Below, in pieces: positions 6,342 through 53,327 of a stretch of DNA of 53,438 bases. Location of the stretch: NCBI GenBank assembly GCA_035712665.1, contig DASTAN010000098.1, positions 1 through 53,438 of the forward strand. The letters run 5' to 3'. The position numbers were made by a program, and so were the translations under genes. The number at the start of each line of letters is the position of its first letter. Position 1 is the stretch's first letter. The notes beneath the pieces were generated by a model. It was not told the DNA's origin. It did not search any database and saw only the letters and a program-made list of their open reading frames with translations. Source of the DNA: Gemmatimonadales bacterium (GTDB lineage Bacteria > Gemmatimonadota > Gemmatimonadetes > Gemmatimonadales > GWC2-71-9).

Positions 6342-6420
6342 GGTGAACCGTGGGTGAGGGGTACGGGGTAAGGGGTGAGGGGGAGCGAACGGTCGTTCCC
6401 CCTCACCCCTTACCCCTTAC
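6342..6420. repeat. Heptamer-periodic palindromic element (GTGAACG + GGGGTGA/GGGGTAA units) with a perfect 20-bp stem
   Basis: GGTGAACCGTGGGTGAGGGGTAC, then GGGGTAAGGGGTGAGGGGGA (6365-6384), a 12-nt loop, and TCCCCCTCACCCCTTACCCC (6397-6416), which is the exact reverse complement. Confidence 0.9.
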
Positions 6421-6429
6421 ATCCCCCCT

Positions 6430-6455
6430 CCGCCTTCCGCCTTCCGCCTTCCGCC
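6430..6455. repeat. Tandem heptamer array (CCGCCTT) x about 3.7
   Basis: CCGCCTTCCGCCTTCCGCCTTCCGCC read directly; it lies just upstream of the anti-sigma start. Confidence 0.9.
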
Positions 6456-6478
6456 GATCCGCAGTATCCTGAGGGGTT

Positions 6479-6703
6479 ATGACCTGCGCCGAGTTCTCCC
6501 GCTACTACACCGACTTCCGTGACGGCAACGATCCGGCGATGGCCGAGCGGATGCGGGCCCACGTCGAGCTCTGCCCGAAGTGCCGCTCGCACCACCGGGC
6601 GCTCCACGTCGGGGTCGAGATGCTGCGGAATCACGAACTCGATCCGTCCGAAGGCCTCCAGCACTCCCTGTCCGCACGCTTCAAGACCCGCCCGATCCGC
6701 TAG
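6479..6703 (+). CDS. Putative zinc-finger (zf-HC2-like) anti-sigma factor
   Basis: 74-aa ORF directly downstream of the ECF sigma gene. Contains C-x...H-x3-C-x2-C (MTCAEF...HVELCPKCRSHH). GAGGGG lies before the ATG. Confidence 0.6.
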   Translation: MTCAEFSRYYTDFRDGNDPAMAERMRAHVELCPKCRSHHRALHVGVEMLRNHELDPSEGLQHSLSARFKTRPIR

Positions 6704-6716
6704 TTAGCTTTCGGCG

Positions 6717-7775
6717 ATGGCTCGCCGTCTCCGCCCCGACCAGCTCCAGCGCGCACTCGCCGCCGATCCGCCGGCGGGGGCGTACTACGTGCACGGGCCG
6801 GAGGCGCTGCTCCGCGACGAGGCGGTGGCGACGCTGCTCGACACCATCCTCGACCCCGGGCTCCGCGACTTCAACCTCGACCTGCTGAGCGCCACGCAGG
6901 TCGAGCCCGACGCCCTCGCCGCCGCGTGCAGCACGCTGCCGATGATGGCGGATCGCCGCGTCGTGGTGCTCCGCGACGTCGAGGCGTGGAAGCGGAAGAC
7001 GAAGGCGAAGCAGCCTGCCCTGCAGTATCTCGAACGTCCCGCGCCCGAGACCGTGCTGGTCCTGGTGCAGGGCGATGGCAACGACCCGGATGCCGACCTC
7101 GCGGCGCGCAGCGTGAGCGTCGAGTGCGCGACGCCGATCGGCGACGCCCTCGACGCCTGGCTCGATGCGCGCCTCGCCGCGGTCGACGTGACCCTCGCCC
7201 CCGACGCACGGGAGCACCTGCTTCGCGCCACCAACGGCGACCTCGGCCTCCTGCACGCCGAGTGCGGCAAGCTCGCCGGGCTCGGCGGCGGCGCGGCGCT
7301 CGACCTCGCGACGGTCGGTGACCTGGTCGGCGTGCGTGCCGGCGAGACCGCCGACGACTGGCGCGACGCCGTGCTGGCCGACGACCTCCCCCGCGCGATG
7401 GCGACGCTGCCGCGCGTGCTCGAGCAGTCGGGGGTCTCGGGGGTGAAGCTGGTCACCCTCCTGGGCTCCTCGCTGCTGGTGCTCCGCTGGGGCCGCGTCA
7501 CCGCCGAAGCGCGGAAGATCCGCGGCGCGTCGCTCGTCGACCCGGTGAAGAAGCTCTGCTTCGGCACGCGCCCGAGTGTCGGCTCCTACGATCCGTTCGC
7601 GCGACTCGTCGGTGAGGTCGTCGGGCGCTGGTCGCTCGCGCGCCTCGATGCGGCCGTGCGGGCCACCCTCGCCGCCGACGTCGCCCTCAAGACCACCACC
7701 GTCTCCGGCGAGCAGGGCATCCTGACCGATCTCGTCCTCGCCCTCGCTGCCTCACGCACCCGGAAGGCCGCCTGA
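6717..7775 (+). CDS. holA: DNA polymerase III delta subunit
   Basis: YYVHGPEALLRDEAV...FNLDLLSA...TLPMMADRRVVVLRDVE pattern typical of HolA; about 350 aa. Confidence 0.75.
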   Translation: MARRLRPDQLQRALAADPPAGAYYVHGPEALLRDEAVATLLDTILDPGLRDFNLDLLSATQVEPDALAAACSTLPMMADRRVVVLRDVEAWKRKTKAKQPALQYLERPAPETVLVLVQGDGNDPDADLAARSVSVECATPIGDALDAWLDARLAAVDVTLAPDAREHLLRATNGDLGLLHAECGKLAGLGGGAALDLATVGDLVGVRAGETADDWRDAVLADDLPRAMATLPRVLEQSGVSGVKLVTLLGSSLLVLRWGRVTAEARKIRGASLVDPVKKLCFGTRPSVGSYDPFARLVGEVVGRWSLARLDAAVRATLAADVALKTTTVSGEQGILTDLVLALAASRTRKAA

Positions 7776-8653
7776 TGTCGCTCCGTCGCCTCGCTGTCGT
7801 CCTGTCGCTCGCCGCGTCACCGCTCGCCGCGCAGGACTCCGCCCTCCCGACCACGCCGCGCTTCGTCGAGATCCTCCGCCTCGCGCAGGACGGCCGTGGC
7901 GACTCCGCCCGCGTGCTGGTCAATCGCTACCTCGAGGAGACGGCGTCGGCCGACGCGTCGTATCCCGAGGCGCTCTACACGGCGGCGACCGTGGCGCGCA
8001 CCGGCGACCAGGCCCGGCTCCTCTTCTCGCGCGTGGCGGTCGAGTACGCCACCTCGGCGTGGGCCGATCGGGCGCTGCTGCGGCTCGCGCAGCTCGACTA
8101 CGGCGCCGGCGACACCCAGGGCACGGTCGCGCGCGTCACCCGCCTGATGGCCGACTACCCGCTGTCGCCGGTCCTGCCGACCGCGGCGCTCTGGGGCGCG
8201 CGTGCGGCCTTCGAGCGGCGTGACGGCACCACCGCGTGTGCGTGGCTCACGCGCGGGATCGAGCGCGTCGGCGACGACGTCGAGCTCAAGAACCAGCTCG
8301 AGTTCACGCGCCAGCGCTGCACCACCCTGGGCGGCAGCACGACGCCGACCGGCCCGGTGCCGACCCAGCCGCAGCCCGAACCGGTGCGCACCCCGGCGCC
8401 GGAGGATCGCACCGCGACGGCCCCCGCCTCGCCGTGGCGCGTGCAGGTGGCCGCCGTGAGCGACCCGGCCGCGATCCGTCGCGTCGAGCAGCAGATCGAG
8501 CGTGCCGGCTTCACGGTGTTTCGCGTGCCGGGCCCCAACGGCCTCACCAAGCTGCAGGCCGGCCCGTTCGCGACCCGCGAGGCGGCGCAGGCGAAGGTCG
8601 CCGCGCTGGCAGCCGCGGTCGGCGGCCAGCCGTTCGTGACGCGAGCGCCGTGA
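7775..8653 (+). CDS. SPOR-domain protein with TPR-like N-terminal region, secreted
   Basis: Signal peptide ...ASPLAAQD, a Pro/Thr-rich linker, and a C-terminal SPOR-like WRVQVAAVSD...GLTKLQAGPFATREAAQA. ATG 7775 shares its A with the holA TGA. Confidence 0.7.
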   Translation: MSLRRLAVVLSLAASPLAAQDSALPTTPRFVEILRLAQDGRGDSARVLVNRYLEETASADASYPEALYTAATVARTGDQARLLFSRVAVEYATSAWADRALLRLAQLDYGAGDTQGTVARVTRLMADYPLSPVLPTAALWGARAAFERRDGTTACAWLTRGIERVGDDVELKNQLEFTRQRCTTLGGSTTPTGPVPTQPQPEPVRTPAPEDRTATAPASPWRVQVAAVSDPAAIRRVEQQIERAGFTVFRVPGPNGLTKLQAGPFATREAAQAKVAALAAAVGGQPFVTRAP

Positions 8654-11226
8654 GCACGACGCCGCTCCTCGCCCAGTACCAGGAGATCAAGTCGCGCCAC
8701 CCTGGCGCGATTCTCTTCTTCCGGATGGGCGACTTCTACGAGATGTTCTACGACGACGCGCAGGTCGCGTCGCGGGTGCTGAACATCACCCTCACCGCGC
8801 GCGGCGACGGCACGCCGCTCGCCGGCGTCCCGGTGAAGGCCGCCGCGGGGTACCTGCGCCAGTTCATCGCCGCCGGCCATCGCGTCGCGATCTGCGAGCA
8901 GATCGAGGACCCGAAGCTCGCCAAGGGCATCGTCAAGCGCGCCGTCGTCGAGACCGTGACCCCGGGCGCGTTCCTCGACGACGACTACGTCCCCGGGTCG
9001 CGCAACAACTGGCTGGTGGCCGTGCTCCCGCTTGCGGAGGGAGGTGCCGGCATCGCGGCCCTCGACCTCTCGACCGGCGAGTTCGCGCTCGAGCGCGCGG
9101 CGCCCGACGGCGTCGCCGAGGCGCTCGGTCGCCTGGCGCCCGCCGAAGTCGTGCACCCCAAGGGTGACGACGCGCTGCCGCTCGACAGCGAGGTGCTGCG
9201 CACGCCGCGCGAGCGCTGGGAGTTCGACGCCGAACTCGCGCGCGAGGAGCTCGCGCGTCGCCTCGGCCTCGCGTCGCTCGATGGCCTGGGCCTCGACCCC
9301 GCGGATGCGCCCGCCATCGGCGCCGCGGGGGCCCTGCTTCGCTATGCTCTCGAGCTGCAGCCCGCCGGCATCCCGCAGCTGCGCCGTCCGGTGCTGCGGC
9401 GCGCCGACGACCTCTGCTGGCTCGACGAGATGACGCGGCGCAACCTCGAGCTGGTGGAGCCGCTTCGCGCCGGCGCAAAGGGCGTGACCCTGGTCGAGAC
9501 GCTCGATCGCACGATGACGCCGATGGGGGCCCGCCTGCTCCGCCAGTGGGTCGTGTCGCCGCTGCGGGCCCTCGCGCGCATCACCGCGCGCCACGCCGCC
9601 GTCGGCACGCTCGCCACCGAGGGGCGCCTCCGCACGCGACTCCGCGAGTCGCTCGATGGCGTCCGCGACCTCGAGCGGCTCGCCGCGCGCGCGGCGGCCG
9701 GTCGCGCCACGCCGCGGGAGCTCGGGGCGCTGCGCGATTCGTTCGTGCGACTCCCGACGCTCGCGACGATCCTCGGCGAGCTCGCCGGCAGCGACGCGGA
9801 GCTGCTTGCCCACGCCGCGCGCACCTTCGACCCGCTCGCCGATCTCGCCGACCTGCTGCAGCGCGGCCTCAGCGAGCGGCCGCCGATCACGCTCGCGGAT
9901 GGCGGCGTCATCGCCCCGGGCTTCGACGCCGAGATCGACGAGCTCCGTGACCTGCGCGACAACGGCCGCAACGCCCTCGCCGCGATCCAGCAGCGCGAGC
10001 GCGACCGCACCGGGATCCCGTCGCTCAAGGTCGGCTTCAACAAGGTCTTCGGCTACTACATCGAGATCACCCACGCCAATCGCGAGGCGGTGCCGGCCGA
10101 CTACGAGCGGCGCCAGACCCTCGCCAACGCCGAGCGCTACGTCACGCCCGAGCTCAAGGAGTACGAGGCGAAGGTCCTCGGCGCGGAGGAGCGGATCCTG
10201 GCCCGCGAGGGTGAGCTCTTCGGCGAGCTCCGCGCGGCCGTCGGCACCGCGATCGCCCGAGTGCAGGGCACCGCGGACCTCGTGGCACGCCTCGATGTCC
10301 TCGCGTCACTCGCGGAGGTCGCCGTCACCGAACGCTGGGTGCGCCCCGAGCTGCACGAGGGGATGGAGCTGGTGCTCACGGGCTCGCGCCATCCGGTGAT
10401 CGAGCGGATGATGCCGCGCGAGCGCTTCGTGCCGAACGACGTCCGCTTCGACGAGCGCGAGCGGGTGCTCCTCGTCACCGGCCCGAACATGGCCGGCAAG
10501 AGCACCATCCTGCGCCAGATCGGGCTCTGCGTGCTCCTGGCGCAGCTCGGCAGCTTCGTCCCGGCCGAGCGCGCGCGCATCGGCATCGTCGACCGGCTCT
10601 TCACCCGCGTCGGCGCGAGCGACAACCTCGCGCGCGGGCAGTCGACGTTCATGGTCGAGATGAGCGAGACCAGCGCGATCCTCCACAACGCCACGGCACG
10701 CTCGCTGGTGCTGCTCGACGAGATCGGTCGCGGCACCAGCACCTACGACGGCGTGGCGATCGCGTGGGCGGTCACCGAGCACCTGCACGACCGCATCGGC
10801 TGCCGCACGATGTTCGCGACCCACTACCACGAGCTGATGCAGCTCCCCGAGAAGCTCGCGCACGCGCGGAACTGCAACGTCGCGGTGAAGGAGACGGCGC
10901 AGGGGATCGTCTTCCTGCATCGGCTCGAGCATGGCGGCACCGACCGGAGCTACGGGATCCACGTGGCCGAGCTCGCGGGACTTCCCGCCGCCGTGGTCGG
11001 GCGCGCGAAGGACGTCCTCGGGACGCTCGAGACCGGCCACCGGATGGTGCCGGGCGCACCGCCGGTGGGGCAGGACCCCGCGCAGCCGTCCCTCTTCGAC
11101 CTCGCTCCGGCCCCGGTGCCGCCGCCGGTCGATCCGATTCTCGAGCGGCTCCGCGAGCTCGACCTGAATCGGATGACGCCGCTCGAGGCGCTGCAGGAGC
11201 TGGCGAAGCTGAAGAACGAGACCTGA
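8650..11226 (+). CDS. mutS: DNA mismatch repair protein MutS
   Basis: TPLLAQYQEIKSRHPGAILFFRMGDFYEMFYDDA N-terminus, Walker A GPNMAGKST, and STFMVEMSETS. GTG 8650 overlaps the upstream TGA. The track ORF from 8236 is over-extended. Confidence 0.95.
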   Translation: MSTTPLLAQYQEIKSRHPGAILFFRMGDFYEMFYDDAQVASRVLNITLTARGDGTPLAGVPVKAAAGYLRQFIAAGHRVAICEQIEDPKLAKGIVKRAVVETVTPGAFLDDDYVPGSRNNWLVAVLPLAEGGAGIAALDLSTGEFALERAAPDGVAEALGRLAPAEVVHPKGDDALPLDSEVLRTPRERWEFDAELAREELARRLGLASLDGLGLDPADAPAIGAAGALLRYALELQPAGIPQLRRPVLRRADDLCWLDEMTRRNLELVEPLRAGAKGVTLVETLDRTMTPMGARLLRQWVVSPLRALARITARHAAVGTLATEGRLRTRLRESLDGVRDLERLAARAAAGRATPRELGALRDSFVRLPTLATILGELAGSDAELLAHAARTFDPLADLADLLQRGLSERPPITLADGGVIAPGFDAEIDELRDLRDNGRNALAAIQQRERDRTGIPSLKVGFNKVFGYYIEITHANREAVPADYERRQTLANAERYVTPELKEYEAKVLGAEERILAREGELFGELRAAVGTAIARVQGTADLVARLDVLASLAEVAVTERWVRPELHEGMELVLTGSRHPVIERMMPRERFVPNDVRFDERERVLLVTGPNMAGKSTILRQIGLCVLLAQLGSFVPAERARIGIVDRLFTRVGASDNLARGQSTFMVEMSETSAILHNATARSLVLLDEIGRGTSTYDGVAIAWAVTEHLHDRIGCRTMFATHYHELMQLPEKLAHARNCNVAVKETAQGIVFLHRLEHGGTDRSYGIHVAELAGLPAAVVGRAKDVLGTLETGHRMVPGAPPVGQDPAQPSLFDLAPAPVPPPVDPILERLRELDLNRMTPLEALQELAKLKNET

Positions 11227-11288
11227 GATCGGCGATCGGAGATCGGAGGACGCAGCCTCGGATCTCCGACCTCTGATCGCCAATCTCC
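11225..11288. repeat. GATCGGA-type palindromic element, copy E1
   Basis: GAGATCGGCGATCGGAGATCGGAGG-ACGCAGC-CTCGGATCTCCGACCTCTGATCGCCAATCTCC. It begins inside the mutS stop codon. Confidence 0.85.
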
Positions 11289-11305
11289 GGGGTTACTTTC
11301 CCGAA

Positions 11306-11671: not shown

Positions 11672-11677
11672 CCAGCA

Positions 11678-11754
11678 GGACACGCGACAAAGGACACGCG
11701 ACAAGGGATCTCGGTTCAGGCGCCCTTGTCACGCGTCCCGTGTCCCTTGTCCCC
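11678..11754. repeat. Heptamer-periodic imperfect palindrome (GGACACG/GGACAAG units)
   Basis: GGACACGCGACAAAGGACACGCGACAAGGG ... CCCTTGTCACGCGTCCCGTGTCCCTTGTCCCC. The arms are complementary apart from a few mismatches. Confidence 0.8.
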
Positions 11755-11760
11755 TTGCCA

Positions 11761-11790
11761 GTAACCATCGTTTAGCTGTATGGTGGTTAC
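11761..11790. promoter_or_regulatory. 7-bp inverted repeat GTAACCA-N16-TGGTTAC abutting the start codon (candidate operator)
   Basis: GTAACCA at 11761-11767 and TGGTTAC at 11784-11790, in a locally AT-richer patch directly before GTG 11791. Confidence 0.25.
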
Positions 11791-12258
11791 GTGCTAGCGC
11801 CTCTTCAGGAACACGCCGTCCTCGGCTTTCTCCACACCCCGTTCGATCCGACCGATGATCCGCCGCCCCCCGCGGTCCGGCGGGCGGTCCTGCGGGTCCG
11901 GGAGCTCCTCGCCCGACTGCTCCGCGACGAGGCCCGCGGGGTCGGTGCGAGCGACGCCGACCTCGACGCGCTGGACCGGATCCTGAGCCGAGCCGCCGCC
12001 GCCCGCGGGCTCGTGCCCACCGTCAGCGGCTACGGCTGGGGGTGGCGTCGCGACCCCGGCGAGGTCACCCGCCGAGTCTTCCCTGCGGTCTGGTCGACCG
12101 CCACCCTCCTCGCCTCACACGACGACCGCACCCGACTCAAGGTCTGCGACGGCTGCGGCGCGCTGTTCTTCGATCGCTCTCGCAACCGCTCCCGCCGCTG
12201 GTGCGACATGGGGAGCTGCGGGAACCGGGCGAAGGCGAGGGCCTACAGGAAACGGTGA
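11791..12258 (+). CDS. CGNR zinc-finger domain protein (ABATE/zf-CGNR family)
   Basis: C-terminal ...CDGCGALFFDRSRNRSRRWCDMGSCGNRAKARAYR is the CGNR signature. Confidence 0.8.
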   Translation: MLAPLQEHAVLGFLHTPFDPTDDPPPPAVRRAVLRVRELLARLLRDEARGVGASDADLDALDRILSRAAAARGLVPTVSGYGWGWRRDPGEVTRRVFPAVWSTATLLASHDDRTRLKVCDGCGALFFDRSRNRSRRWCDMGSCGNRAKARAYRKR

Positions 12259-12348
12259 ACCGTGAACAGGGTGAGGGGTGAGGCGTAAGGGGTGAGGGGG
12301 CACATCCCCTGTCCCGTGTCCCGTGTCCCCATTCACTGTTCACCGTTC
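12254..12348. repeat. Composite heptamer element: GTGAAC x2, GGGGTGA x4, centre, CCCGTGT x3, GTTCAC x2
   Basis: GGTGAACCGTGAACAGGGTGAGGGGTGAGGCGTAAGGGGTGAGGGGG-CACAT-CCCCTGTCCCGTGTCCCGTGTCCCC-ATTCAC-TGTTCACCGTTC. The stop codon of the CGNR gene lies in the first unit. Confidence 0.85.
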
Positions 12349-12372
12349 TCCCCCTCCGCTGTATCCTTCGCG

Positions 12373-14755: not shown

Positions 14756-14787
14756 CACGACCCACGACTCACGACCCACGACTCGAC
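14756..14787. repeat. Direct tandem heptamer array (CACGACY) x about 4.5
   Basis: CACGACC CACGACT CACGACC CACGACT CGAC fills the ddl-rhomboid spacer and runs straight into ATG 14788. Confidence 0.9.
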
Positions 14788-18921: not shown

Positions 18922-19737
18922 ATGACGCCGCTCGATCTCGTCACGCCGCTTGCCCACGCCCACGCCCGGGGACCGAACGGCGTGGCGGCGTTTCGCCTCG
19001 CGCACGCGGCGCTGCTTGGGCAGCTCGCCCGCCAGCGCCGACCGTGGGATCCGAGCGAGCCGACGCTGCCGATCGTCACCCCCGGGACGCTGGCCTTCGT
19101 GCACGCCGAGGCGGTCGCCACCGCGCTTCAGGCGGTCGCACGCACCGCCGACGCGGTGGGGCTGCTGCCGCGCGATGTCGCGGTCGTCTCGTTCGTCGGC
19201 GTCGGGCCGGGCGACGCCGTCGATGTCCTGCCGCACCCGGCCTCGCCGATGATCGTCCTTGCGATGGATCAGCTCGCGGCACCGCTCGCGGCCGGCGTCG
19301 CCCTCGCCCGCGGGCTGGCCCTCGCCGCGCGCTGGCACAGCCAGGCGCTTCCCACGCCGACCCCGTGGGATCGTCTCGCCGTGCTCGCCCACGTGCCGCT
19401 CGCCGAGTGGGTGTACGCCGAAGGGCTGGCCCACCACCTCATCGCGGCGTTGCACCCGGACTGTCCGGCGCACGAGCGCCTGGGACTCTCCCGGGTCGCC
19501 TTCGATCGGCTTCGGGCGCGCGAGCAGCGGCTCCTCGCGGCCCTCGAGGCGGACCTCCCGGAGCGGGGCATCGGCCCCTGGGCGCGCTGGCTCGACGCCG
19601 CCTCGCCGGTCCCGGAGACGCCGGATGGGAGCCGGCCACCCCGCGGCGCGATCGGCTACCTGTCGTGGCGACTCCTGGCGGCACGGGTGGAGCGGGTGGG
19701 GTTGGCGGCGGCGGGGGGGATGGCGGTGGAAGGGTGA
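18922..19737 (+). CDS. Hypothetical protein
   Basis: ORF with GC3-rich codon usage and no motif I recognise. Start re-set to ATG 18922 (MTPLDLV...). The stop TGA lies inside the GAAGGGT array. Confidence 0.5.
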   Translation: MTPLDLVTPLAHAHARGPNGVAAFRLAHAALLGQLARQRRPWDPSEPTLPIVTPGTLAFVHAEAVATALQAVARTADAVGLLPRDVAVVSFVGVGPGDAVDVLPHPASPMIVLAMDQLAAPLAAGVALARGLALAARWHSQALPTPTPWDRLAVLAHVPLAEWVYAEGLAHHLIAALHPDCPAHERLGLSRVAFDRLRAREQRLLAALEADLPERGIGPWARWLDAASPVPETPDGSRPPRGAIGYLSWRLLAARVERVGLAAAGGMAVEG

Positions 19738-19833: not shown

Positions 19834-19869
19834 GCGGGCGGCGCACCGGTCGCCCGATCCGCCGCCCGC
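19834..19869. terminator. GC-rich perfect 10-bp hairpin in the convergent gap (possible U-tract-less terminator)
   Basis: GCGGGCGGCG (19834-19843), a 16-nt loop, CGCCGCCCGC (19860-19869). No adjacent T-tract. Confidence 0.3.
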
Positions 19870-19870
19870 T

Positions 19871-19898
19871 CACGACTCACGACCCACGCCTCACGACT
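19871..19898. repeat. Direct tandem heptamer array (CACGACT CACGACC CACGCCT CACGACT)
   Basis: Read directly. The yidC stop codon (19891-19893, minus strand) and last codons lie inside it. Confidence 0.85.
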
Positions 19899-21558
19899 TC
19901 TTCAGCTTCTGCCGCTCCTTCATGATCAGCCACTGCTGCGGGAGCGCCGCCAGGTTCTGCACCGCGTAGTACAGGTTCAGCCCTGACGCGAACTTCGAGA
20001 ACATCAACAGGAAGACCGCCGGCATCAGGTACATCATGATCTTCGTCTGCGGGTTCGGCGGCATTCCCATCTGCCCGATCTTGGTCATCAGGTACATCGA
20101 GCCCGCCATCAGCACCGGGATGATGTAGAGCGGATCGAAGCGCGCCAGGTCCGGCATCCACAGGAAGCCAACGCCGCGCAGCTCGATCGTGTTCGCCAGC
20201 ACGAAGAAGACCGCGATCAGGAACGGATACGGCAGCAGCATCGGCCAGCAGCCGCCGAGCGGATTGACGTTGTGCTCCTTGTAGAGCTTGAACATCTCCG
20301 TCTGCAGCTTCTGCGGATCCTGCTTGTAGCGCTCCTGCAGCCGCTGCAGCTCGGGCTGGATCGCCTGCATCGCCGTCATCGACCGCATCGCCTTCTGGTT
20401 GAGCGGCCAGAGCAGCAGGCGGATCAGCACGCCGAACGTCACGATCACCCAGCCGTAGGCGAGGCCGAGGGACTCGTGCATCCAGACGAAGACGGTGCGG
20501 ATGCCGACCGCGAACGGCCGGATGATGGTGCGGAAGCCCGGCCAGCCGTACGGGTTCACGTCGTCGAAATCGCGGCCCATCGCGGTGAGATGGTCGTACT
20601 CCATCGGCCCGAGATACAGCGTCGCCGCGAAGCCGCCGCTGGTCGGCACCGTGAGCGACGCCGAGACATCCGCCCGCGTCACCGTCTCGTTGGTGTCGCG
20701 CACCGCCGCGATGACGCTGCCGATCTGCCCCTTCGGCCCGTCGGTCCGGAGCGAGTCGTACGCGAAGACGCCCATCACGAAGTACTTGTTCTTGACCGCC
20801 GCCCACTCGAACGGACCGCCGAACACCTCGGTCGAATCGGGCTCGAGCTCGCCGAACCGGGTGAGCTCGCTCTTGTCCCGCTTCACCACCACGCCGCTTT
20901 CGCGGAGGTTCTCCGCAGCCACCGCCTCGGTCTGCCGGAAGCCGTCGCCCATCCCGAGCAGCAGCGTCGCCCCCGTCACCGGGAGGCCGCCGATGGTGCC
21001 CGCGACGTCGATGCGATAGTCGTGATGCTGGAAGGTGTAGCGCAGCGTCGCCGGCAGCCCGCGCACGGTGCCGGTGAGCGTGAGGGTCTTCGTCTCGCCC
21101 TCGCCCACGACCAGGTTCTCGGCGTCCGCCGTGAAGCCGGTCGCCGCGAAGTCGACCGTGTCGCCCGCGACGATGAGCCGGTTGTCGAGCAGCGGCGCCG
21201 CCGCCGGGACCAGCTCCAGCGTGTCGCGCCCCTCGCCCTCGGCGAGCGAGCGGTACTCGAGGAAGCGGGCCGAGACGATCCGGCCGCCGCGCGTCGAGAT
21301 CCCATAGGCGTAGATCGGCGAGCGCACCTCGATCGTGTCGTCGACGATCGCCGAGGCCGCGGGCAACGCCGCGGTCGTGTCGCCAGCCGCGAGCGCCGGG
21401 GCAGGGGCCGCGAGCGGCGGGGCAACCGCGGAGTCGGTCGCGGGCGCCGCGGCGGAATCGGCCACGGCTGGTGGGGCCGGCTTCTTGAGGAAGATGCTCG
21501 GCAGGAATGCGATCACCATGATCAGCGCAATCGCAAGCAACGGACGACGATCGTTCAC
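19891..21558 (-). CDS. yidC: Membrane protein insertase YidC
   Basis: 555 aa with a large periplasmic domain and the conserved C-terminal core (...NPLGGCWPMLLPYPFLIAVFF...YYAVQNL...). Located in the canonical rnpA-yidD-yidC context. Confidence 0.9.
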   Translation of the reverse strand: MNDRRPLLAIALIMVIAFLPSIFLKKPAPPAVADSAAAPATDSAVAPPLAAPAPALAAGDTTAALPAASAIVDDTIEVRSPIYAYGISTRGGRIVSARFLEYRSLAEGEGRDTLELVPAAAPLLDNRLIVAGDTVDFAATGFTADAENLVVGEGETKTLTLTGTVRGLPATLRYTFQHHDYRIDVAGTIGGLPVTGATLLLGMGDGFRQTEAVAAENLRESGVVVKRDKSELTRFGELEPDSTEVFGGPFEWAAVKNKYFVMGVFAYDSLRTDGPKGQIGSVIAAVRDTNETVTRADVSASLTVPTSGGFAATLYLGPMEYDHLTAMGRDFDDVNPYGWPGFRTIIRPFAVGIRTVFVWMHESLGLAYGWVIVTFGVLIRLLLWPLNQKAMRSMTAMQAIQPELQRLQERYKQDPQKLQTEMFKLYKEHNVNPLGGCWPMLLPYPFLIAVFFVLANTIELRGVGFLWMPDLARFDPLYIIPVLMAGSMYLMTKIGQMGMPPNPQTKIMMYLMPAVFLLMFSKFASGLNLYYAVQNLAALPQQWLIMKERQKLKKS

Positions 21559-21577
21559 GGCAGACTCACCGTTCGGG

Positions 21578-21814
21578 TCACGGAACCGGATCGGGACCGC
21601 CCGGATGCCAGGGGTGGCACCGCGCGATCCGACGAAGCCCCAACCAGCCGCCGCGCACCACCCCGTACCGGCTCACCGCCTCGAGGGTGTACTGCGAACA
21701 GCTCGGCGTGAACCGGCACGCCGGCGGCAGGGCGGGAGAAATGAAACGCTGGTAGCCCCGAATGACGAGGACCACCAGCTGACGGGGGAACCGGAGCACC
21801 CCCGAGACCTTCAC
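21578..21814 (-). CDS. yidD: Membrane protein insertion efficiency factor YidD
   Basis: ...[32 protein letters not shown]...[16 protein letters not shown] 21814 overlaps the rnpA stop (GTGA). Confidence 0.85.
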
Positions 21815-22170
21815 GGTGTCCCGGTCCCGAGGACCAGGTCGCGCCACCCCAGCAGGTCGTCGCGCAGCTCCGCGAACGAGGCCCGATAGCTCTCGGGACG
21901 GGCGCGGATCACCGCGTCGAGGGCCGGCAGCACCGCCTGGCACTCGCGGCGCCAGAGTTCCTTGAGCCGGCGGCGCAAACGATTGCGGGCCACCGCCGAC
22001 TGCCGGAACCGTGGTACGACCAGTCCGAGTCGAGGGTGGCCCATCTCGCCGACAGCCCACAGAATGTCGAGGTGCGACCGTCGCGACCGGCGCCCCGACT
22101 GGAGCACCCGTCGCACGTCAGCCGCGCGAACCAGCCGACGCGAGCGCGGGAAGCGCTCGTCGCCGGTCAC
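21811..22170 (-). CDS. rnpA: Ribonuclease P protein component
   Basis: ...[21 protein letters not shown]......[24 protein letters not shown] (RNR motif). GTG 22170 sits 2 nt after the rpmH stop. The longer track ORF is an over-extension. Confidence 0.8.
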
Positions 22171-22172
22171 GG

Positions 22173-22331
22173 TCAGACGCGGGCGTGCTTCGACGGCAGG
22201 GAGACCGCGAGCCGCTTCCGCCCCTTCTTGCGGCGGCGCGACAGGACGGCCCGACCCCAACGGTCGGCCATCCGCTTGCGGAACCCGTGCTTGGCGATGC
22301 GGCGCTTGTTGCGCGGCTTGTACGTCGGCAT
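22173..22331 (-). CDS. rpmH: 50S ribosomal protein L34
   Basis: Hand translation [52 protein letters not shown] (52 aa). Below the ORF-track size cutoff. Classic position upstream of rnpA. Confidence 0.9.
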
Positions 22332-22403
22332 CATATCCAGAAACTCCGTCCAAAGTAGCCCGGAAGAATACCTGCCTCACCCCCCAGACGTCAAGAGTTT
22401 GAC

Positions 22404-22412
22404 TTTTCCACA
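22404..22412. promoter_or_regulatory. DnaA-box-like 9-mer TTTTCCACA upstream of dnaA
   Basis: One mismatch to TTATCCACA. Weaker matches at 22332-22340 and 22456-22464. Confidence 0.35.
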
Positions 22413-22489
22413 ATGGACCGTACCTTTGGCCTCCCTTGCGACCACCGCAAGCCTTCTATCCGCACCATTCATCCGGTTCCGACACACTG

Positions 22490-25275: not shown

Positions 25276-25291
25276 ACGTCGCCTTGCATCG

Positions 25292-25322: not shown

Positions 25323-25385
25323 CGTGTCCGGTAACCAATCGCCTCGGCCACGCGTATCTTGCCCGGACCCCCCGCCGTTCGCCGC

Positions 25386-34174: not shown

Positions 34175-34191
34175 AGGCCTAGATTTCGCCA

Positions 34192-37044: not shown

Positions 37045-37047
37045 GAC

Positions 37048-41415: not shown

Positions 41416-41483
41416 GAGGAGAGATCCGAGATCGGAGATCGGAGGTGCGATCTCTGATCTCCGATCACCGATCTCCCCTCTCC
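41414..41483. repeat. GATCGGA-type palindromic element, copy E6
   Basis: GAGAGGAGAGATCCGAGATCGGAGATCGGAGG-TGC-GATCTCTGATCTCCGATCACCGATCTCCCCTCTCC. It starts inside the stop codon of the upstream gene. Confidence 0.9.
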
Positions 41484-43153: not shown

Positions 43154-43180
43154 CCTTCAAGCTAGTCGTGGCGACGGGCA

Positions 43181-43258
43181 GAGAGGGGAGATCGGAGATC
43201 CGAGATCGGAGGGTCTATCCTTCCCTCTCTGGTCTCCGATCTCCGATCTCTGATCTCC
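43181..43258. repeat. GATCGGA-type element, copy E7 (in a divergent promoter gap)
   Basis: GAGAGGGGAGATCGGAGATCCGAGATCGGAGGG-TCTATCCTTCCCTCTCTGG-TCTCCGATCTCCGATCTCTGATCTCC. Confidence 0.85.
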
Positions 43259-43269
43259 GCGAGGCGAAC

Positions 43270-44532: not shown

Positions 44533-44584
44533 ACAAAACCTCGCCCCCGGATGCGTGAGCGTCCGGGGGCGGAGTCTTTTGTGG
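44533..44584. terminator. Bidirectional rho-independent terminator between convergent genes
   Basis: ACAAAAC-CT-CGCCCCCGGA (44542-44551), a 10-nt loop, TCCGGGGGCG (44562-44571), then GAGTCTTTTGTG. T-rich tails are present on both strands. Confidence 0.6.
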
Positions 44585-44589
44585 GTCAT

Positions 44590-44662
44590 GGGCCTTGGGC
44601 CCTGAGCCTTGAGCGCTGCCGTGTGATGATCTGCTCACGGCTCGCGGCCCGAGGCTCACGGC
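44590..44662. repeat. Heptamer-periodic imperfect palindrome (GRGCCTT/RGCCNYG units)
   Basis: GGGCCTT GGGCCCT GAGCCTT GAGCGCT GCCGTG-TGATGATCTGC-TCACGGC TCGCGGC CCGAGGC TCACGGC. It ends at the ferredoxin stop codon. Confidence 0.75.
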
Positions 44663-44926
<264 letters not shown>

Positions 44927-47196: not shown

Positions 47197-47198
47197 CA

Positions 47199-47308
47199 GA
47201 GATGGGTGATCGGAGATCGGAGATCAGAGGGGAAAGGGACACGAGACAAAGGACGTCCCCCTCACCCCTCACCCCTCACCACTCACTTTTTCACCGTTCA
47301 CCGTTTCC
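47199..47308. repeat. Composite heptamer element, copy E8: GATCGGA arm + GGGACAC-type + CCCTCAC x3-4 + TTCACCG x2
   Basis: GAGATGGGTGATCGGAGATCGGAGATCAGAGGGG AAAGGGACACGAGACAAAGGACG TCCCCCTCACCCCTCACCCCTCACCACTCAC TTTTTCACCGTTCACCG. Confidence 0.85.
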
Positions 47309-47327
47309 ACCATTCCTCTGGTGGGAA

Positions 47328-47356
47328 TTGACGAATCCCGACTCCCGGGCTAGGAT
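47328..47356 (+). promoter_or_regulatory. Candidate sigma-70-type promoter of sufR (would give a nearly leaderless mRNA)
   Basis: TTGACG (47328-47333), a 17-nt spacer, TAGGAT (47351-47356). ATG 47366 is only 10 nt downstream of the -10 element. Confidence 0.3.
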
Positions 47357-49504: not shown

Positions 49505-49574
49505 GAGAGGGGAGATCGGAGACCGGAGATCGGAGGGCGCGATCTCGGATCTCCGATCCCCGATCTCCGATCTC
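49505..49574. repeat. GATCGGA-type palindromic element, copy E9 (inside the suf operon)
   Basis: GAGAGGGGAGATCGGAGACCGGAGATCGGAGGG-CGC-GATCTCGGATCTCCGATCCCCGATCTCCGATCTC. It fills the sufB-sufC spacer. Confidence 0.9.
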
Positions 49575-49588
49575 ATTCTGAGGACATC

Positions 49589-50359
49589 ATGGCACTGCTG
49601 GACATTCAGGATCTGCACGCTTCCGTCGACGACACGGCGATCCTCAAGGGGATCTCCCTCACCGTCAACGCCGGCGAGGTGCACGCCATCATGGGGCCGA
49701 ACGGCTCCGGCAAGTCGACCCTGGCGCAGGTGCTCGCGGGCCACCCGGCCTACGAGGTGACCGGCGGCAGCGTCACCCTCGACGGCGCCGACCTGCTCGA
49801 CATGGAGGCCGAGGAGCGCGCGTGGGCCGGCGTCTTCCTCGCCTTCCAGTACCCGGTGGAGATCCCGGGCGTGACCAACGCCTACTTCCTCCGCCAGGCG
49901 TACAACGAGATCCGCAAGGCGCGCGGCCTCGACGAGCTCGACCCGATGGACTTCCTCGACCTCCTCGAGGAGAAGCTCAAGGTCGTCGAGTGGGGCCCGG
50001 AGATCATGGAGCGCGCGGTCAACTTCGGCTTCTCCGGCGGCGAGAAGAAGCGGAACGAGATCCTGCAGATGGCGGTGCTCGAGCCGAAGCTCGCGATCCT
50101 CGACGAGACCGACTCGGGGCTCGACATCGACGCGCTGCGCATCGTGGCCGACGGCGTCAACCAGCTGAAGCGCCCCGACAGCGCGACCATCCTGGTGACG
50201 CACTACCAGCGCCTCCTCGACTACATCGTGCCCGACTACGTGCACGTCCTCGCGGGCGGGAAGATCGTCAAGTCGGGCGGCAAGGAGCTCGCCCTCGAGC
50301 TCGAGAAGCGCGGCTACGAGTGGCTGACGGGCGTCGCGGAATCGGCGGCGCTGGCATGA
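49589..50359 (+). CDS. sufC: Fe-S cluster assembly ATPase SufC
   Basis: Walker [10 protein letters not shown], signature FSGGEKKR, Walker [13 protein letters not shown]. Confidence 0.95.
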
Positions 50360-51660
50360 GCGGGACGACCACCACGCTCCCGTTCGTGGAGCTGTTCGGT
50401 CGCGCCGAGGCCGCGGGCGGCCCGTCGTGGCTCTCGGCCCGGCGGCGCGCGGCCTTCGATCGCTTCGCCGAGGTCGGTGTCCCGACTTCGAAGGTCGAGG
50501 ACTGGCGCTTCACCCCGGTGCACGCGCTGGCCACGACGCCGTTCAGCGCGCCGGCAGCGGCCGGCGTCCCGAGTGCCGCGACGCTCGCCCCGTACTGGAC
50601 CGGCCCCGACAGCTGGAGCCGCCTCGTGCTGGTCGACGGCGCCTTCGCCCCCGCGCTCTCGACGCTCCGCGACGGCGTCGCGGTCCGCTCGCTCAGGGCG
50701 GCGATCGAGGCCGGCGACCCGCTGGTCGAGCGGCATCTCGGGCGCACCGCGACCGCGGAGGCGACGCCGTTCGCGGCGCTCTCGCTCGCGACCTTCACCG
50801 ACGGCGTCGTGCTGCACCTCCCCGCGGGCACGCAGGCCGAGTCGCCGGTCGAGGTGCTGCACGTCACGACGACCGGCGCCGACAACGCGCTGGTCTCGAC
50901 CCGCGTGCTGCTCGTCGCCGGCGACAACGCCGAGGGCGCGCTGGTCGAGTCGTTCGTGGCCCTCGGCTCGGCGCCGTACCTCACGATCCCGGTGACCGAA
51001 GTCGTCCTCGGCGCCAATGCGCGCGTCGAGCACGTCCGCATCCAGCGCGAGGCCGCACCGGCCTGGCACATCGGCTTCACGCACGCCGACCAGCAGGCGA
51101 CCTCGCACTACCGCTCGTTCTGCTTGAGCGTGGGGGCGAAGCTCTCGCGCCACGACCTGCACGCGAAGCTCAACGCCTCCGGCATCGAGACGCTGCTCTA
51201 CGGCCTCTCGCTCGCCGATGGCGAGCAGCTGGCCGACACCCACTCGGCGATCTTCCACGACCAGCCCCACTGCAACTCGTGGGAGGTCTACAAGGGGATC
51301 TTCGGCGGGCGCGCACGCGGCGTCTTCAACGGCAAGGTCTTCGTGCAGCCGATCGCCCAGAAGACCGACGCCAAGCAGACCAACCGCAACCTGCTCCTGT
51401 CGGACACGGCGCAGGTGGACACCAAGCCGCAGCTCGAGATCTTCGCCGACGACGTGAAGTGCACCCACGGCGCCACCGTGGGCCGCCTCAACGAGCAGCA
51501 GCGCTACTACCTGCGCTCGCGCGGCATCGGCGGCCAGCTCGCGCAGCAGATCCTGACCTGGGCCTTCGCGGCCGAGGTCATCGCCGAGGTCACCATCCCC
51601 GAGACGCGCGCCGCGCTCGAGCAGCTGGTGCGCACCCGCCTCGACGAGATGACGTCGTGA
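50356..51660 (+). CDS. sufD: Fe-S cluster assembly protein SufD
   Basis: SufB/D-family C-terminus ...[38 protein letters not shown]...Q.YYL.SRGI. ATG 50356 overlaps the sufC stop. Confidence 0.9.
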
Positions 51661-52850
51661 TGGACGTCGCTGGCCTGCGCGCGGAGTTCCCGATCCTCGG
51701 GGCCACCTCGCGCGGCCAGCCGCTGCACTGGCTCGACAACGCCTCCACGACCCAGAAGCCGCGCGCGGTGCTCGATGCCGTGCACGGCTTCTCGTCGTCG
51801 TGGAACGCGAACATCCACCGCGGCGTGTACGAGTTCTCCGAGCGCGCCTCGCTCGCGTATGACGGCACCCGCGAGACCGTCGCCCGGTTCCTCGGCACCG
51901 GCGACCCGCACGAGGTCGTCTTCACCCGCGGCACGACCGAGAGCATCAACCTCGTTGCGCACGGGTTCCTCGCGCCGGGGGCGACCGTGCTCGTGAGCGA
52001 GATGGAGCACCACGCCAACATCGTCCCGTGGCAGCTCGCCGGGGCGCGCACCGTGCCGATCCCGGTGACCGACCGGGGCGAGCTCGACCTCGAGGCGGCG
52101 GCACGGTTGCTGGCCGACGGGCCGGCGCTGCTCGCGGTGGTGCACGTGTCGAACGCGCTCGGGACGATCAACCCGATCGCCGAGCTGGTGCGGATGGCGA
52201 CGGCGCACGGCGTCCCGGTGCTGGTCGATGGCGCCCAGGCGGTCGGGCATTTCCCGGTCGATGTCGCCGCGCTCGGCTGCGACTTCTACTGCTTCAGCGG
52301 CCACAAGCTCTTCGGCCCGACCGGCGTCGGCGTCCTCTGGGCCCGGCGTGCGCACCTCGAGGCGATGCGGCCGTACCAGGGCGGCGGCGACATGATCGAC
52401 ATCGTCGGCTTCGATCGCACCACCTTCGCCCCGGTGCCGCACCGCTTCGAGGCGGGGACGCCGAACATCAGCGGGGTGATCGGCCTCGACGCCGCGATCC
52501 GCTGGGTGATGGCGCACGACCGCGACGCGTGGGCCGCGCACGAGGAGGCGCTCTTCGCCGACGCCCTCGCCGCGGTACGCGAGATTCCCGGGCTCCGGCT
52601 GCTGGCCGAGCCGCGCGAGCGAGTGGCGGTGCTGACGTTCACGATGGACGGGGCGCACCCGCACGACATCGCGTCGATCCTCGACGGCGAGGGGGTCTGC
52701 ATCCGCGCCGGGCACCACTGCACCCAGCCGCTGCATCGCCGCCTCGATGTCGGTGCGTCGGCCCGCGCTTCGTTCGCACCCTACAACGACGCCTCGGATG
52801 TCGCGGCGCTGGTGCGCGGCCTCCGCCGGGTGCAGGAGCTCTTCGGCTGA
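51660..52850 (+). CDS. sufS: Cysteine desulfurase SufS (class II aminotransferase V)
   Basis: ...LDNASTTQKP..., HHANIVPW, PLP lysine SGHKLFGPTGVG, catalytic Cys RAGHHCTQPL. The ATG shares its A with the sufD TGA. Confidence 0.9.
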   Translation: MDVAGLRAEFPILGATSRGQPLHWLDNASTTQKPRAVLDAVHGFSSSWNANIHRGVYEFSERASLAYDGTRETVARFLGTGDPHEVVFTRGTTESINLVAHGFLAPGATVLVSEMEHHANIVPWQLAGARTVPIPVTDRGELDLEAAARLLADGPALLAVVHVSNALGTINPIAELVRMATAHGVPVLVDGAQAVGHFPVDVAALGCDFYCFSGHKLFGPTGVGVLWARRAHLEAMRPYQGGGDMIDIVGFDRTTFAPVPHRFEAGTPNISGVIGLDAAIRWVMAHDRDAWAAHEEALFADALAAVREIPGLRLLAEPRERVAVLTFTMDGAHPHDIASILDGEGVCIRAGHHCTQPLHRRLDVGASARASFAPYNDASDVAALVRGLRRVQELFG

Positions 52851-53278
52851 TGGCGAGCATGGACCAGCTCTACCAGACGCTCATCATCGAGCACGATCGC
52901 TCGCCGCGAAACTTCCGCACCCTCGAGGCGCCGACGCACGAGGGGCGGGGGCGGAATCCGCTCTGCGGCGACGAGGTGTCGCTGCAGCTGCGGCTCGACG
53001 CCGACGGCCGCGTGGCCGAGGTCGGCTTCCAGGGCCGCGGCTGCGCGGTGAGCAAGGCCTCGGCCTCGATGATGACCGGCGCGATCCAGGGGAAGACGGT
53101 CGAGGAAGTGCGGGAACTCTTCGATGCCTTCCACGCGTTGCTCACCGGTGGCGAGGCCGACCGCGACCGCCTCGGCAAGCTGGTCGCATTTGAAGGATTG
53201 AAGACGTATCCGATGCGCGTGAAGTGCGCCACGATGGCGTGGCACGTTCTGAAGGAAGCCGTGAGTCACGAGTCGTGA
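52850..53278 (+). CDS. sufU: SufU / IscU-like zinc-dependent sulfur transfer protein
   Basis: NPLCGDE, GRGCAVSKAS, RVKCATMAW. The ATG shares its A with the sufS TGA. Confidence 0.85.
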   Translation: MASMDQLYQTLIIEHDRSPRNFRTLEAPTHEGRGRNPLCGDEVSLQLRLDADGRVAEVGFQGRGCAVSKASASMMTGAIQGKTVEEVRELFDAFHALLTGGEADRDRLGKLVAFEGLKTYPMRVKCATMAWHVLKEAVSHES

Positions 53279-53327
53279 GTCGTCAGAGGGGCATGTTCCT
53301 TCTCACGACCCACGACTGACGACTCAC
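53261..53327. repeat. Heptamer-periodic imperfect palindrome (GTGAGTC / CACGACY units)
   Basis: GTGAGTC ACGAGTC GTGAGTC GTCAG-AGGGGCATGTTCCTTC-TCACGAC CCACGAC TGACGAC TCAC. The left arm encodes the last 6 codons and stop of sufU. Confidence 0.85.

Follow-up and report, generated by a model that had tools for sequence, protein, structure and literature searches.

Tandem-heptamer palindromic elements in the dnaA region of a Gemmatimonadales genome and their turnover among relatives

Heptanucleotide repeats are the most abundant class of long simple sequence repeats (SSRs) in many bacterial genomes, and polymerase slippage has been suggested as their source (Mrazek et al. 2007, as cited in PMC4679880 and PMC4692102). 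Named cases are the cyanobacterial STRRs, GGGAATC of Xanthomonas and GGGGAYT of Nostoc, and TAACTGA of Beggiatoaceae, cyanobacteria and Bacteroidetes, all of unknown function; some of these occur as inverted pairs and, like the repeats described here, avoid divergent spacers (PMC4679880, PMC4692102). Bacterial intergenic heptanucleotide repeats are thus already known as a class, the function and origin of which are not understood. Here we describe the anatomy, placement bias, stability, turnover, inversion and polarity of elements with arms of tandem heptamers in a 53,438-bp stretch of DNA (contig DASTAN010000098.1; hereafter the window), which is the dnaA/oriC region of the metagenome-assembled genome (MAG) of an uncultured, soil-type member of the Gemmatimonadales. 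The window arrays are tandem beyond chance and mainly non-coding, the two properties of heptanucleotide long SSRs, and the elements belong to that descriptive class.

The heptamer signal was assessed by repeat detection and by shuffling. Tandem Repeats Finder returned 35 rows of period 7 in the window, compared to 0, 2, 1 and 2 rows at periods 5, 8, 10 and 11; rows at periods 6, 9 and 12 mostly represent coding periodicity. The 4,200 nt of intergenic DNA contained 10 exact period-7 runs (at least 10 consecutive matches), compared to an expectation of 0.03 +/- 0.17 from 200 dinucleotide-preserving shuffles, and no exact runs at periods 4-6 or 8-12. Coding DNA contained 2 exact period-7 runs in 48.7 kb, an approximately 58-fold lower density (0.041 per kb compared to 2.38 per kb of intergenic DNA). 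These data bear out, within the window, the enrichment over composition-matched shuffles on which a preliminary description of this DNA had depended. Together with the folds given below, they also support its central claim of spacers made up of a modular set of tandem heptamers, mostly in the form of imperfect palindromes. All of the units that it listed were found (GATCGGA, GGGACAC, GGGGTGA, GTGAACG, CACGACY, GAAGGGT/GGAGGGC, GRGCCTT and CCGCCTT). The density that it reported holds in kind, its count of about 20 array-bearing spacers in 28 becoming, on recounting, 17 in 31 (spacers of 35 nt or longer), a site roughly every 3 kb.

The window has a G+C content of 70.6% and contains 46 genes with a clear third-position GC signal, as mapped by a codon-score caller whose own gene starts are used throughout. 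Pfam matches identify a chromosomal origin neighborhood (yidC, dnaA, dnaN, polA, mutS, a holA-like gene, ddl and sufBCDS-nifU); the window further encodes an ECF sigma factor and a PAS/GAF histidine kinase among other housekeeping genes, and RNase P RNA is present. Among species-representative genomes, the best matches to SufB are Gemmatimonadota MAGs, at no more than 85% identity. All source sequences are metagenome-assembled, the source genome being represented by approximately 53 kb and its relatives, which are designated by numbers beginning with L, by pieces of 3-23 kb. The elements of the window are as follows, with fold energies and z scores relative to shuffles where given.

6342-6455: composite after the ECF sigma gene, consisting of outer GTGAACC, (GGGGTRA)4, a loop, (CCCCTYA)3 and (TCCGCCT)4; -60.4 kcal/mol, z -8.7
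11222-11292: GATCGGM hairpin beginning at the mutS stop codon; -42.6 kcal/mol, z -6.7
11676-11765: (GGACACGCGACAA)2 array opposite (GTCCCNT)n, forming a hairpin after the TonB_C gene
12254-12350: nested composite with GTGAAC units outside and, inside, (GGGGTGA)4 facing (GTCCCGT)3, a non-complementary pair classed as heterotypic; its first unit contains the stop codon of gene 11791-12258
14756-14787: direct C-rich array (CACGACY)4, ending 5 nt upstream of the rhomboid gene start codon
19729-19773: direct G-rich array (GAAGGGT GAAGGGT GGAGGGC)2, giving the stop codon to gene 18922-19737
19869-19898: C-rich array (CTCACGA)4 overlapping the yidC stop codon, right-hand partner of the array at 19729
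25221-25275: GGGCCTY/AAGGCYC hairpin immediately after dnaN, upstream of the canonical terminator at 25291-25319
25385-25416: (CTCCGAT)4.6, a direct C-rich array ahead of the M28 peptidase gene
27150-27215: GATCGGA hairpin filling a convergent spacer; -41.2 kcal/mol, z -7.5
31122-31192: GATCGGA hairpin in a convergent spacer
34078-34176: in the GWxTD-polA spacer, (GTGAACG)n and then a GGGACAN hairpin, with the stop codon within a GTGAACG unit
35066-35196, plus strand: in-frame composite GAGAGGG-(GATCRGM)3-(GGGACAC)4-loop-(CCCCTCA)3 within polA
37050-37112: GATCGGM hairpin filling the polA/MMPL convergent spacer and overlapping the MMPL stop codon; -43.1 kcal/mol, z -6.8
41416-41482: GATCGGA hairpin with terminal units GAGAGNN/CCCTCTC, in a convergent spacer; -44.7 kcal/mol, z -8.1
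43180-43262: GATCGGA hairpin, the sole element in any divergent spacer
44585-44665: GGGCCTT.../GCTCACG... hairpin between the bidirectional terminator at 44541-44572 and the ferredoxin stop codon
47197-47310: composite (GATCGGA)3-(GGGACAN)3-loop-(CCCCTCA)4-(TTCACCG)2, situated between the end of the patatin gene and the suf promoter-like site
49505-49578: GATCGGA hairpin between sufB and sufC, within the operon; -47.5 kcal/mol, z -7.6
53255-53330: GTCGTGA/TCACGAC hairpin, giving the stop codon to the nifU-like gene

Elements are 50-115 nt long, and their arms are tandem heptamers that are not themselves palindromic, drawn from at least eight unit types. Most arrays face an inverted partner, and the resulting hairpins fold at -35 to -60 kcal/mol, with z scores of -3 to -9. 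The perfect 20-bp stem reported at 6365-6384/6397-6416 is exact. GATCGGA is the dominant unit, accounting for 10 of the window's sites, and a degenerate terminal unit, GAGAGGG, is common to the GATCGGA elements, with its complement CCCTCTC at some right ends. The preliminary description had GGGGTGA facing GGGACAC inside each composite; this does not apply at 6342-6420, where GGGGTGA meets its own complement, nor in the composite at 34081-34174, the inner hairpin of which pairs GGGACAN with its own complement. Similarly, the arrays at 19729 and 19871, which had been taken as direct only, form a G-rich/C-rich pair around a 100-nt core. Folding both strands of 17 elements revealed no consistent advantage for the sense strand, the difference in co-directional spacers ranging from +5 to -12 kcal/mol and thus going in both directions. 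This result provides no evidence for selection of a sense-only structure tolerant of G-U pairs and is what would be expected of DNA palindromes. Arm lengths within complementary pairs were only weakly and not significantly correlated (Spearman 0.24, p = 0.14). A hairpin of relative L213 (11090-11175) has 3 units in its left arm and approximately 16 (CCTAYGA) units in its right, indicating that one arm can grow independently of the other.

Like the repeats of Mrazek et al. and those of Xanthomonas and Nostoc, as given by Rehm et al. (2015, PMC4692102), the window arrays are tandem 7-nt units, typically in 2-5 copies, that are strongly intergenic and rare between divergent genes. With these repeats they also share occasional inverted pairs and the occupation of the same inter-gene positions in related species, with variation in length and sequence (PMC4692102). 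They differ in the presence of at least eight unit types in one genome, in their nested order and mostly long palindromes, in dominant units that are not G-quadruplex motifs, in the replacement of whole elements by another type between genomes of the same species, and in their host, a member of the Gemmatimonadota with 70% GC. The STRR1-3 units of heterocystous cyanobacteria are CCCCAGT, TTGGTCA and CAACAGT, none of which is found among the units of the window, a Gemmatimonadales sequence. STRRs resemble the present arrays in that several heptamer families are tandem and dispersed in the non-coding DNA of one genome (cited in PMC4692102); the units and the phylum are different here. The TAACTGA repeats are likewise intergenic arrays, of 2-6 copies, that occur sporadically across phyla, but unlike the window arrays they are almost all direct (169 direct sets and one inverted), lie just upstream of start codons and have a single unit type (PMC4679880). 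In an Rfam search of the window only RNase P passed at gathering scores, and at E <= 1 the hairpins matched only miRNA-precursor models, at 26-38 bits compared to thresholds of 58-100. Literature searches on these units, on Gemmatimonadota heptamers and on heptanucleotide repeats with stem-loops found nothing. The earlier statement that the repeats match no named family thus stands for Rfam and for the literature on these particular units, but not for the general heptamer-repeat phenomenon, which had already been described. On the present evidence the elements cannot be assigned to REPs, REPINs, MITEs, intrinsic terminators, STRR1-3 or an Rfam family.

The elements are concentrated at gene ends. 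Among spacers of at least 35 nt, arrays occupy 6 of 6 convergent, 10 of 18 co-directional and 1 of 7 divergent spacers (convergent versus divergent, Fisher p = 0.005). Elements start 0-16 nt past the upstream stop codon or overlap it, and a heptamer unit provides the stop codon of four genes (11791-12258, 18922-19737, GWxTD and nifU-like). The unit-derived TGA stops are at 12256-12258, 19735-19737, 34082-34084 and 53276-53278, within the units GTGAACN, GGGTGAA and GTCGTGA; as 7 is not divisible by 3, each reading frame meets a stop when three TGA-containing units stand in tandem. Where genes are co-directional, the element lies ahead of the promoter-like site of the next gene (for example, TTGACG-17-TAGGAT at 47328-47356), and the spacer at 37045-37099 contains a hairpin and nothing else. 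The spacers flanking dnaA (21541-22489 and 23882-24110; presumed oriC) are 155-270 nt long, AT-richer in places (for example, CTACTACTACTATCTTTTAAAC near 24070) and contain no heptamer arrays.

We also examined orthologous sites in relatives. L081 and L218 come from one JGI sample, and compared to the window show 90% identity in the PolA protein and 90.9% in mutS DNA; PolA of L082 is 79% identical to that of the window. L081 and L082 are fully syntenic with the window. Promoter-bearing spacers are conserved, that between Pkinase and GWxTD being 79 nt in the window, L081 and L082 with few changes. All 3'-end spacers with an element in the window carry one in L081 and L082, usually of another unit type; the element at 27150-27215 is of another type in both. 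Three sites serve as examples.

Blac-FeSP spacer: GATCGGA in the window, GGGACAA in L081, GGATGTT in L082
polA-MMPL spacer: GATCGGA in the window, GTGAACG plus GGGGTRA/GTCCCNT in L081, GTCRTAG in L082
GWxTD-polA spacer: GTGAACG plus GGGACAN in the window, GATCGGA in L081, GGTGAAA in L082

Of 11 sites that can be compared between the window and its orthologues in the L081/L218 genome, including the polA linker discussed below and two L218 spacers, 8 differ in unit type. At the end of mutS (11222-11292) it differs in both L217 and L218, and at 11676-11765 L218 has a GATCGGA hairpin. GATCGGA itself is nearly absent from L082 and L213-L215. The AraC-PRT spacer (window 31122-31192) has kept GATCGGA in the window and L081, but the L081 core (4 units, loop GAATGCACCC, 3 units) has been inverted in situ; it scores 48 to the reverse complement of the window and 25 to the forward strand, while the flanks align directly.

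Replacement is also found at much shorter distances. L217 is 97.8% identical to the window in mutS and has 1 single-nucleotide polymorphism (SNP) in a 216-nt promoter spacer, and unit type differs at 2 of 2 sites. At the site of the window's GGGGTRA hairpin (6342), L217 has (GTGAACN)4, a GC stem with a T-run and (NGTTCAC)4, and its mutS-TonB spacer starts with GGGGTAAGGGGTG where the window has GATCGGA. L213 and L214 are two NCBI MAGs with identical SufB, coding divergence of 1-2% and 0-1 SNP in ordinary spacers. At sufB-sufC and nifU-DsbIso, GTCRTAG/CCTACGA hairpins in L213 correspond to GGATRTT/AACATCC hairpins in L214, and the adjoining 96 nt and 116 nt of coding sequence are identical. These identical flanks indicate that the change is local and not an imported divergent tract. 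Import by homologous recombination was considered and rejected, as the nearest SNPs at sufB-sufC lie 97 nt upstream and 117 nt downstream, which is background. Three further L213/L214 spacers show a change in unit number or a rearrangement, the change at s57-Fer4 and CDPOH-ABC being in unit number. The aligned spacers supply the polymorphism between relatives that had been proposed as a check, in the form of unit-type replacement, unit-number change and rearrangement. The last sufB codons (L214 7095-7130 and L213 7154-7185; ..GTTGGATAA) hold one TTGGATA unit, a rotation of the incoming GGATATT unit of L214; this microhomology may have been used in the replacement, or may be chance. Hypervariability within populations was rejected as well: L082, L083 and L084, from three samples and with identical PolA, are identical across all elements, indicating that change is rapid on the scale of species divergence and is not phase variation.

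The composite at 35066-35196 lies within the coding sequence of polA, so the arrays are not strictly intergenic, a point on which the preliminary description is corrected. It encodes the PolA linker between the 5' nuclease and 3'-5' exonuclease domains (about residues 292-334), a segment that is hypervariable in 30 homologues, and has the identical module order (GATCGGA-GGGACAC-loop-CCCCTCA) to the intergenic element at 47197-47310. The L081 and L082 linkers have the same boundaries and are encoded by other G-rich then C-rich heptamer composites, at L081 10871-10990 and L082 10860-10960, of different unit types. Repeat turnover is therefore rewriting approximately 40 residues of an essential protein. 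The arms of the window's polA copy are non-complementary and its fold is no better than that of shuffles (z -0.6). One composite, (GCGAACG)n plus 'CCTTCGC..CTCAGGATGAC', is contained in both the L081 polA linker and the L081 M28-Transgly spacer, and two GGGGTGA elements of L082 have a common core of approximately 50 nt. The recurrence of multi-module composites and cores at separate loci, together with the shared terminal units, favors dispersal of copies over separate origins at each locus. In the relatives, a second dispersed palindrome (core TCATCCTGAGCGCAGCGAAGGATC) is nested in heptamer hairpins (L081 2960-3050 and 10930-10960; L082 12960-13030); it is absent from the window, and in L081 PolA this core encodes ..ILRSAQDD... 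Rickettsia palindromic elements are palindromic repeats tolerated in frame within protein genes, and the polA linker copy behaves likewise, although those elements are single-consensus sequences of 100-150 nt that, unlike the heptamer elements, are not made of short tandem units.

Related arrays were found well beyond these genomes. (GATCGGA)3 is present in at least 120 metagenome contigs with GC of 0.37-0.72, often joined to other heptamer arrays and sometimes facing inverted partners, and in 8 viral contigs with similar contexts. Recurring partner arrays, either (GCTGGTN)n or (CGGTTGNNNNN)n, come after (GATCGGA)n in metagenome and viral contigs that are unrelated (L205, L086, L117 and L200; L207, L212 and L156), and fixed module orders therefore also exist outside the Gemmatimonadota. 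Arrays are few at most of the 80 SufB loci examined across many phyla, but an Acidobacteriota locus, L061, has 15; there (1446-9282), long direct (GRAGGCA)n arrays of up to 17 units lie repeatedly beside a conserved motif of approximately 30 nt, GCCGAACCGCGCGCGTCAGCAAGCGGAC, which suggests that these heptamer arrays are attached to another dispersed element. Other Gemmatimonadales have the same palindromes of a G-rich and a C-rich arm made from octamers, such as (GTCGGTAG)5(TACCGACC)5 in L007, at the following positions.

L007 19159-19240: octamer palindrome
L014 699-803 and 10683-10765: octamer palindromes
L011 13518-13605: octamer palindrome
L041 4993-6086: octamer palindromes

The 'strict 7-nt period' of the preliminary description thus holds in the window but not as a general rule; a fixed period of 7 nt is not fundamental, and the unit period is lineage-specific. 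These findings bear upon whether the arrays are purely local SSRs, grown in place by slippage (with the polymerase contact of about 7 nt proposed by Mrazek), made palindromic by local template switching, and having neither movement nor function. Such an origin is compatible with the L213/L214 differences in unit number, with the occurrence of (GATCGGA)n in so many unrelated contigs and with the status of heptanucleotide repeats as the commonest long SSR class in many bacteria (PMC4679880 and PMC4692102). It is quite unlikely to be the whole explanation, as it does not account for identical multi-module composites and shared degenerate terminal units at separate loci or for wholesale swaps to an unrelated unit type within approximately 2% divergence, and the octamers of identical architecture in sister lineages argue against a fixed 7-nt polymerase footprint.

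Paired arrays have a defined polarity. We considered adjacent arrays no more than 150 nt apart, each with an absolute GC skew of at least 0.15. The left array was G-rich and the right C-rich in 81 of 89 pairs from many phyla, with the reverse order in 8 (binomial p = 2.5e-16); in the window together with L081 and L082 the counts were 20 and 0. This order, which reads identically on both strands, applied to complementary arms (39 versus 2), non-complementary arms (42 versus 6) and octamers (7 versus 0). The polarity is independent of the orientation of the flanking genes, and a simple explanation based on sense RNA is therefore insufficient. It agrees with, and generalizes, the gene-relative bias reported by Rehm et al. 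for Xanthomonas and Nostoc (PMC4692102). Growth from the palindrome centre was tried as an explanation and rejected, as 152 arms showed no gradient of preservation between inner and outer ends (edge-unit identity of 6.44 outer and 6.48 inner of 7; beyond the array 2.49 and 2.44; neither difference significant). One could instead regard the arrays as the footprint of an active DNA transaction that writes G-rich units 5' to 3' toward a break or palindrome centre from both sides. Candidate activities would be templated repeat addition by a reverse-transcriptase- or telomerase-like activity, or break repair with other dispersed arrays as the template once a hairpin has been cleaved. We consider this proposal improbable, but it would explain together the polarity of pairs with unrelated arms, the recurring nested module order and the overwriting between flanks that remain identical at approximately 2% divergence.

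The position of the hairpins invites comparison with transcription terminators. Intrinsic (Rho-independent, including bidirectional) terminators are similarly GC-rich stem-loops found right after genes and between convergent genes; the heptamer hairpins differ in having no T-run, in their repeat-made stems of 20-35 bp, and in their additional occurrence within an operon and a gene. By consensus scan of intergenic DNA, convincing stem-plus-T-run terminators were found only at 25291-25319 and 44541-44572, totals of canonical terminators were not above those in shuffles, and none of the heptamer hairpins was reported. The bidirectional terminator, a GC stem with an A-run and a T-run, is kept beside a variable heptamer hairpin in the window (44541-44572), L081 (20375-20410) and L082 (20615-20650), and the dnaN terminator at 25291-25319 likewise. 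It is possible, although we hold this view tentatively, that the elements are selected as T-run-independent bidirectional terminators or as stabilizers of mRNA 3' ends, with turnover representing replacement of one hairpin by another. All six convergent spacers are occupied, some spacers such as 37045-37099 consist only of the hairpin, and canonical terminators are rare. Occupancy of orthologous 3' spacers is kept in three genomes despite changes in type, but this would follow equally from new copies preferentially overwriting old ones. Pyrimidine-rich RNA/purine-rich DNA hybrids are relatively weak, and a C-rich 3' arm, which would form such a hybrid, could favor hairpin invasion and explain the polarity. 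Selection of this kind is difficult to reconcile with the elements inside the suf operon and polA, with the two spacers that hold both a canonical terminator and a heptamer hairpin, and with the half of the G-rich/C-rich pairs that cannot pair well.

The elements also resemble REP/BIME sequences and REPINs, being extragenic, repeated and palindromic, with hairpins predicted in single-stranded DNA or mRNA; both are found after genes and within operons, as several families per genome of non-autonomous dispersed DNA (PMC12306157; PMC3116915). REPs are individually palindromic units of 14-40 nt, and REPINs are REP doublets tied to RAYT genes (PMC12306157; PMC3116915). The present elements are repeated, extragenic and stem-loop-forming, as in the definition of REPs in PMC12306157, but at 50-115 nt and with at least eight unit types they are not short units with a single, individually palindromic consensus. 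The hairpin doublet of a REPIN is recognizable, although its arms are arrays instead of REPs and complementarity is missing from about half of the pairs. Further differences from REPs and REPINs are the non-palindromic heptamer arms, the lack of a RAYT in the window and the overwriting of one element by another at fixed sites. Pfam searches found no Y1_Tnp or other transposase, RAYT or reverse transcriptase among the 46 window genes, indicating that the elements are non-autonomous. Arms like the terminal inverted repeats of a MITE are present, but inspection of the flanks in the window and in orthologous spacers revealed no direct duplications.

These comparisons raise the question of whether a dedicated enzyme encoded elsewhere in the genome, such as a RAYT (Y1) or insertion-sequence transposase, mobilizes the elements in trans as REPIN- or MITE-type DNA, the arrays serving as terminal inverted repeats. 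We regard this as unlikely. The inverted-repeat form, extragenic location, high copy number and several families per genome are all as would be expected, as are the lineage-specific bursts (GATCGGA dominating the window and GGATRTT spreading in L214). REPINs provide a precedent as hairpin-forming doublets tied to RAYTs (PMC3116915). The in-frame insertion in polA also fits, with its parallel in the Rickettsia elements. Set against this are the 53 kb without a RAYT or transposase, the arms of tandem heptamers in place of individually palindromic REPs, and the target-site duplications that were not seen. In addition, a new element takes over the boundaries of the old one instead of being added alongside, and the 10 or more unit families would need equally many recognition specificities.

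Some of the units could form other structures. A G-quadruplex motif (at least 4 runs of three or more G with short loops between them) fits GGGGTGA, GGGACAC, GAAGGGT and GGGCCTT, and arrays of approximately four of these units correspond to the G3-4N3-4 motif (PMC4692102), as would be expected if the elements were G-quadruplex-forming regulatory repeats like GGGAATC of Xanthomonas and GGGGAYT of Nostoc. This interpretation is very improbable for the elements as a group, because the dominant GATCGGA, as well as GTGAACG, GTCGTGA, CACGACY and the relatives' GGATGTT and GTCGTAG, have no run of three G, and because quadruplex folding would have to compete with pairing to the complementary arm that lies opposite most G-rich arms.

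A potential concern with the dominant unit is that AGATCGGA corresponds to the first 8 nt of the common Illumina adapter AGATCGGAAGAGC. The assemblies are metagenomic, and contigs L217 and L218 break at or near elements, so an adapter or assembly artefact might be suspected. We find this scarcely credible. The arrays are internal to contigs with syntenic gene flanks, are tandem and palindromic in a way that adapters are not, and lie in frame in an intact polA. Elements are present in independent NCBI, JGI and Logan assemblies, in which orthologous sites are occupied. A de Bruijn mis-threading could exchange loops of the same type, but not the unit type between correct flanks. Although GATCGGA arrays (for example, 27158-27179) are genuine, reads terminating within them could be shortened if adapters are trimmed aggressively. 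In close relatives, short-read contigs stop within or beside heptamer elements (L217 8887-8899, the 3.4-kb contig L218, and L084 1-30), and the repeats thus probably fragment assemblies of these genomes.

The interpretation that we favor, at a probability of roughly one half, is that the elements are lineage-expanded, non-autonomous, REP/BIME-like extragenic palindromes with arms of short-unit arrays, which are remodelled as DNA and tolerated, or perhaps used, as 3'-end hairpins. The copying mechanism and any function at the RNA level are what we infer. Slipped-strand mispairing would alter the number of units, template switching or recombination within the palindrome would copy or flip arms, and other dispersed elements of the same genome would supply the copies that overwrite whole elements in a cassette-like manner. 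Elements would persist where long hairpins are tolerated, which is after stop codons, between convergent genes, in operon spacers and in a disordered protein linker, and would be excluded from promoter-bearing divergent spacers. Because the elements would be transcribed with the upstream gene, the likeliest physiological effect is an RNA hairpin at the 3' end, which might block 3' exonucleases, weakly pause or terminate transcription independently of a T-run, or insulate convergent genes from each other. Such a role would resemble that of REP elements in enterobacteria.

Several observations weigh against this interpretation. The evidence comes from one 53-kb MAG contig and fragments of relatives. 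A role at the RNA level is purely what we infer; hairpins that lack T-runs, one of them inside the suf operon, make strong termination unlikely there. The polA copy and the approximately half of G-rich/C-rich pairs that are non-complementary are unexplained by hairpin function. Inspection revealed no target-site duplications, and no mobilizing enzyme was identified in the window. Replacement occurs between unrelated unit types, without obvious homology to drive gene conversion, and the G-rich-first polarity (81 versus 8) is not predicted by the model.

The present analysis adds to the preliminary description a 3'-end bias, a polarity rule, a copy in coding sequence and rapid turnover of type. 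With about one element per 3 kb, many unit types and whole-element replacement within a species, these genomes offer a dense and tractable case. Cassette-like turnover, in-situ inversion and G-rich-then-C-rich polarity provide three handles on mechanism that studies of single units had not, and the turnover and polarity results make the origin of bacterial heptamer repeats directly testable. For the organisms themselves, the elements supply stop codons and protein linker sequence, create spurious open reading frames, probably fragment short-read assemblies of what are abundant soil bacteria, and probably define most transcript 3' ends in these genomes.

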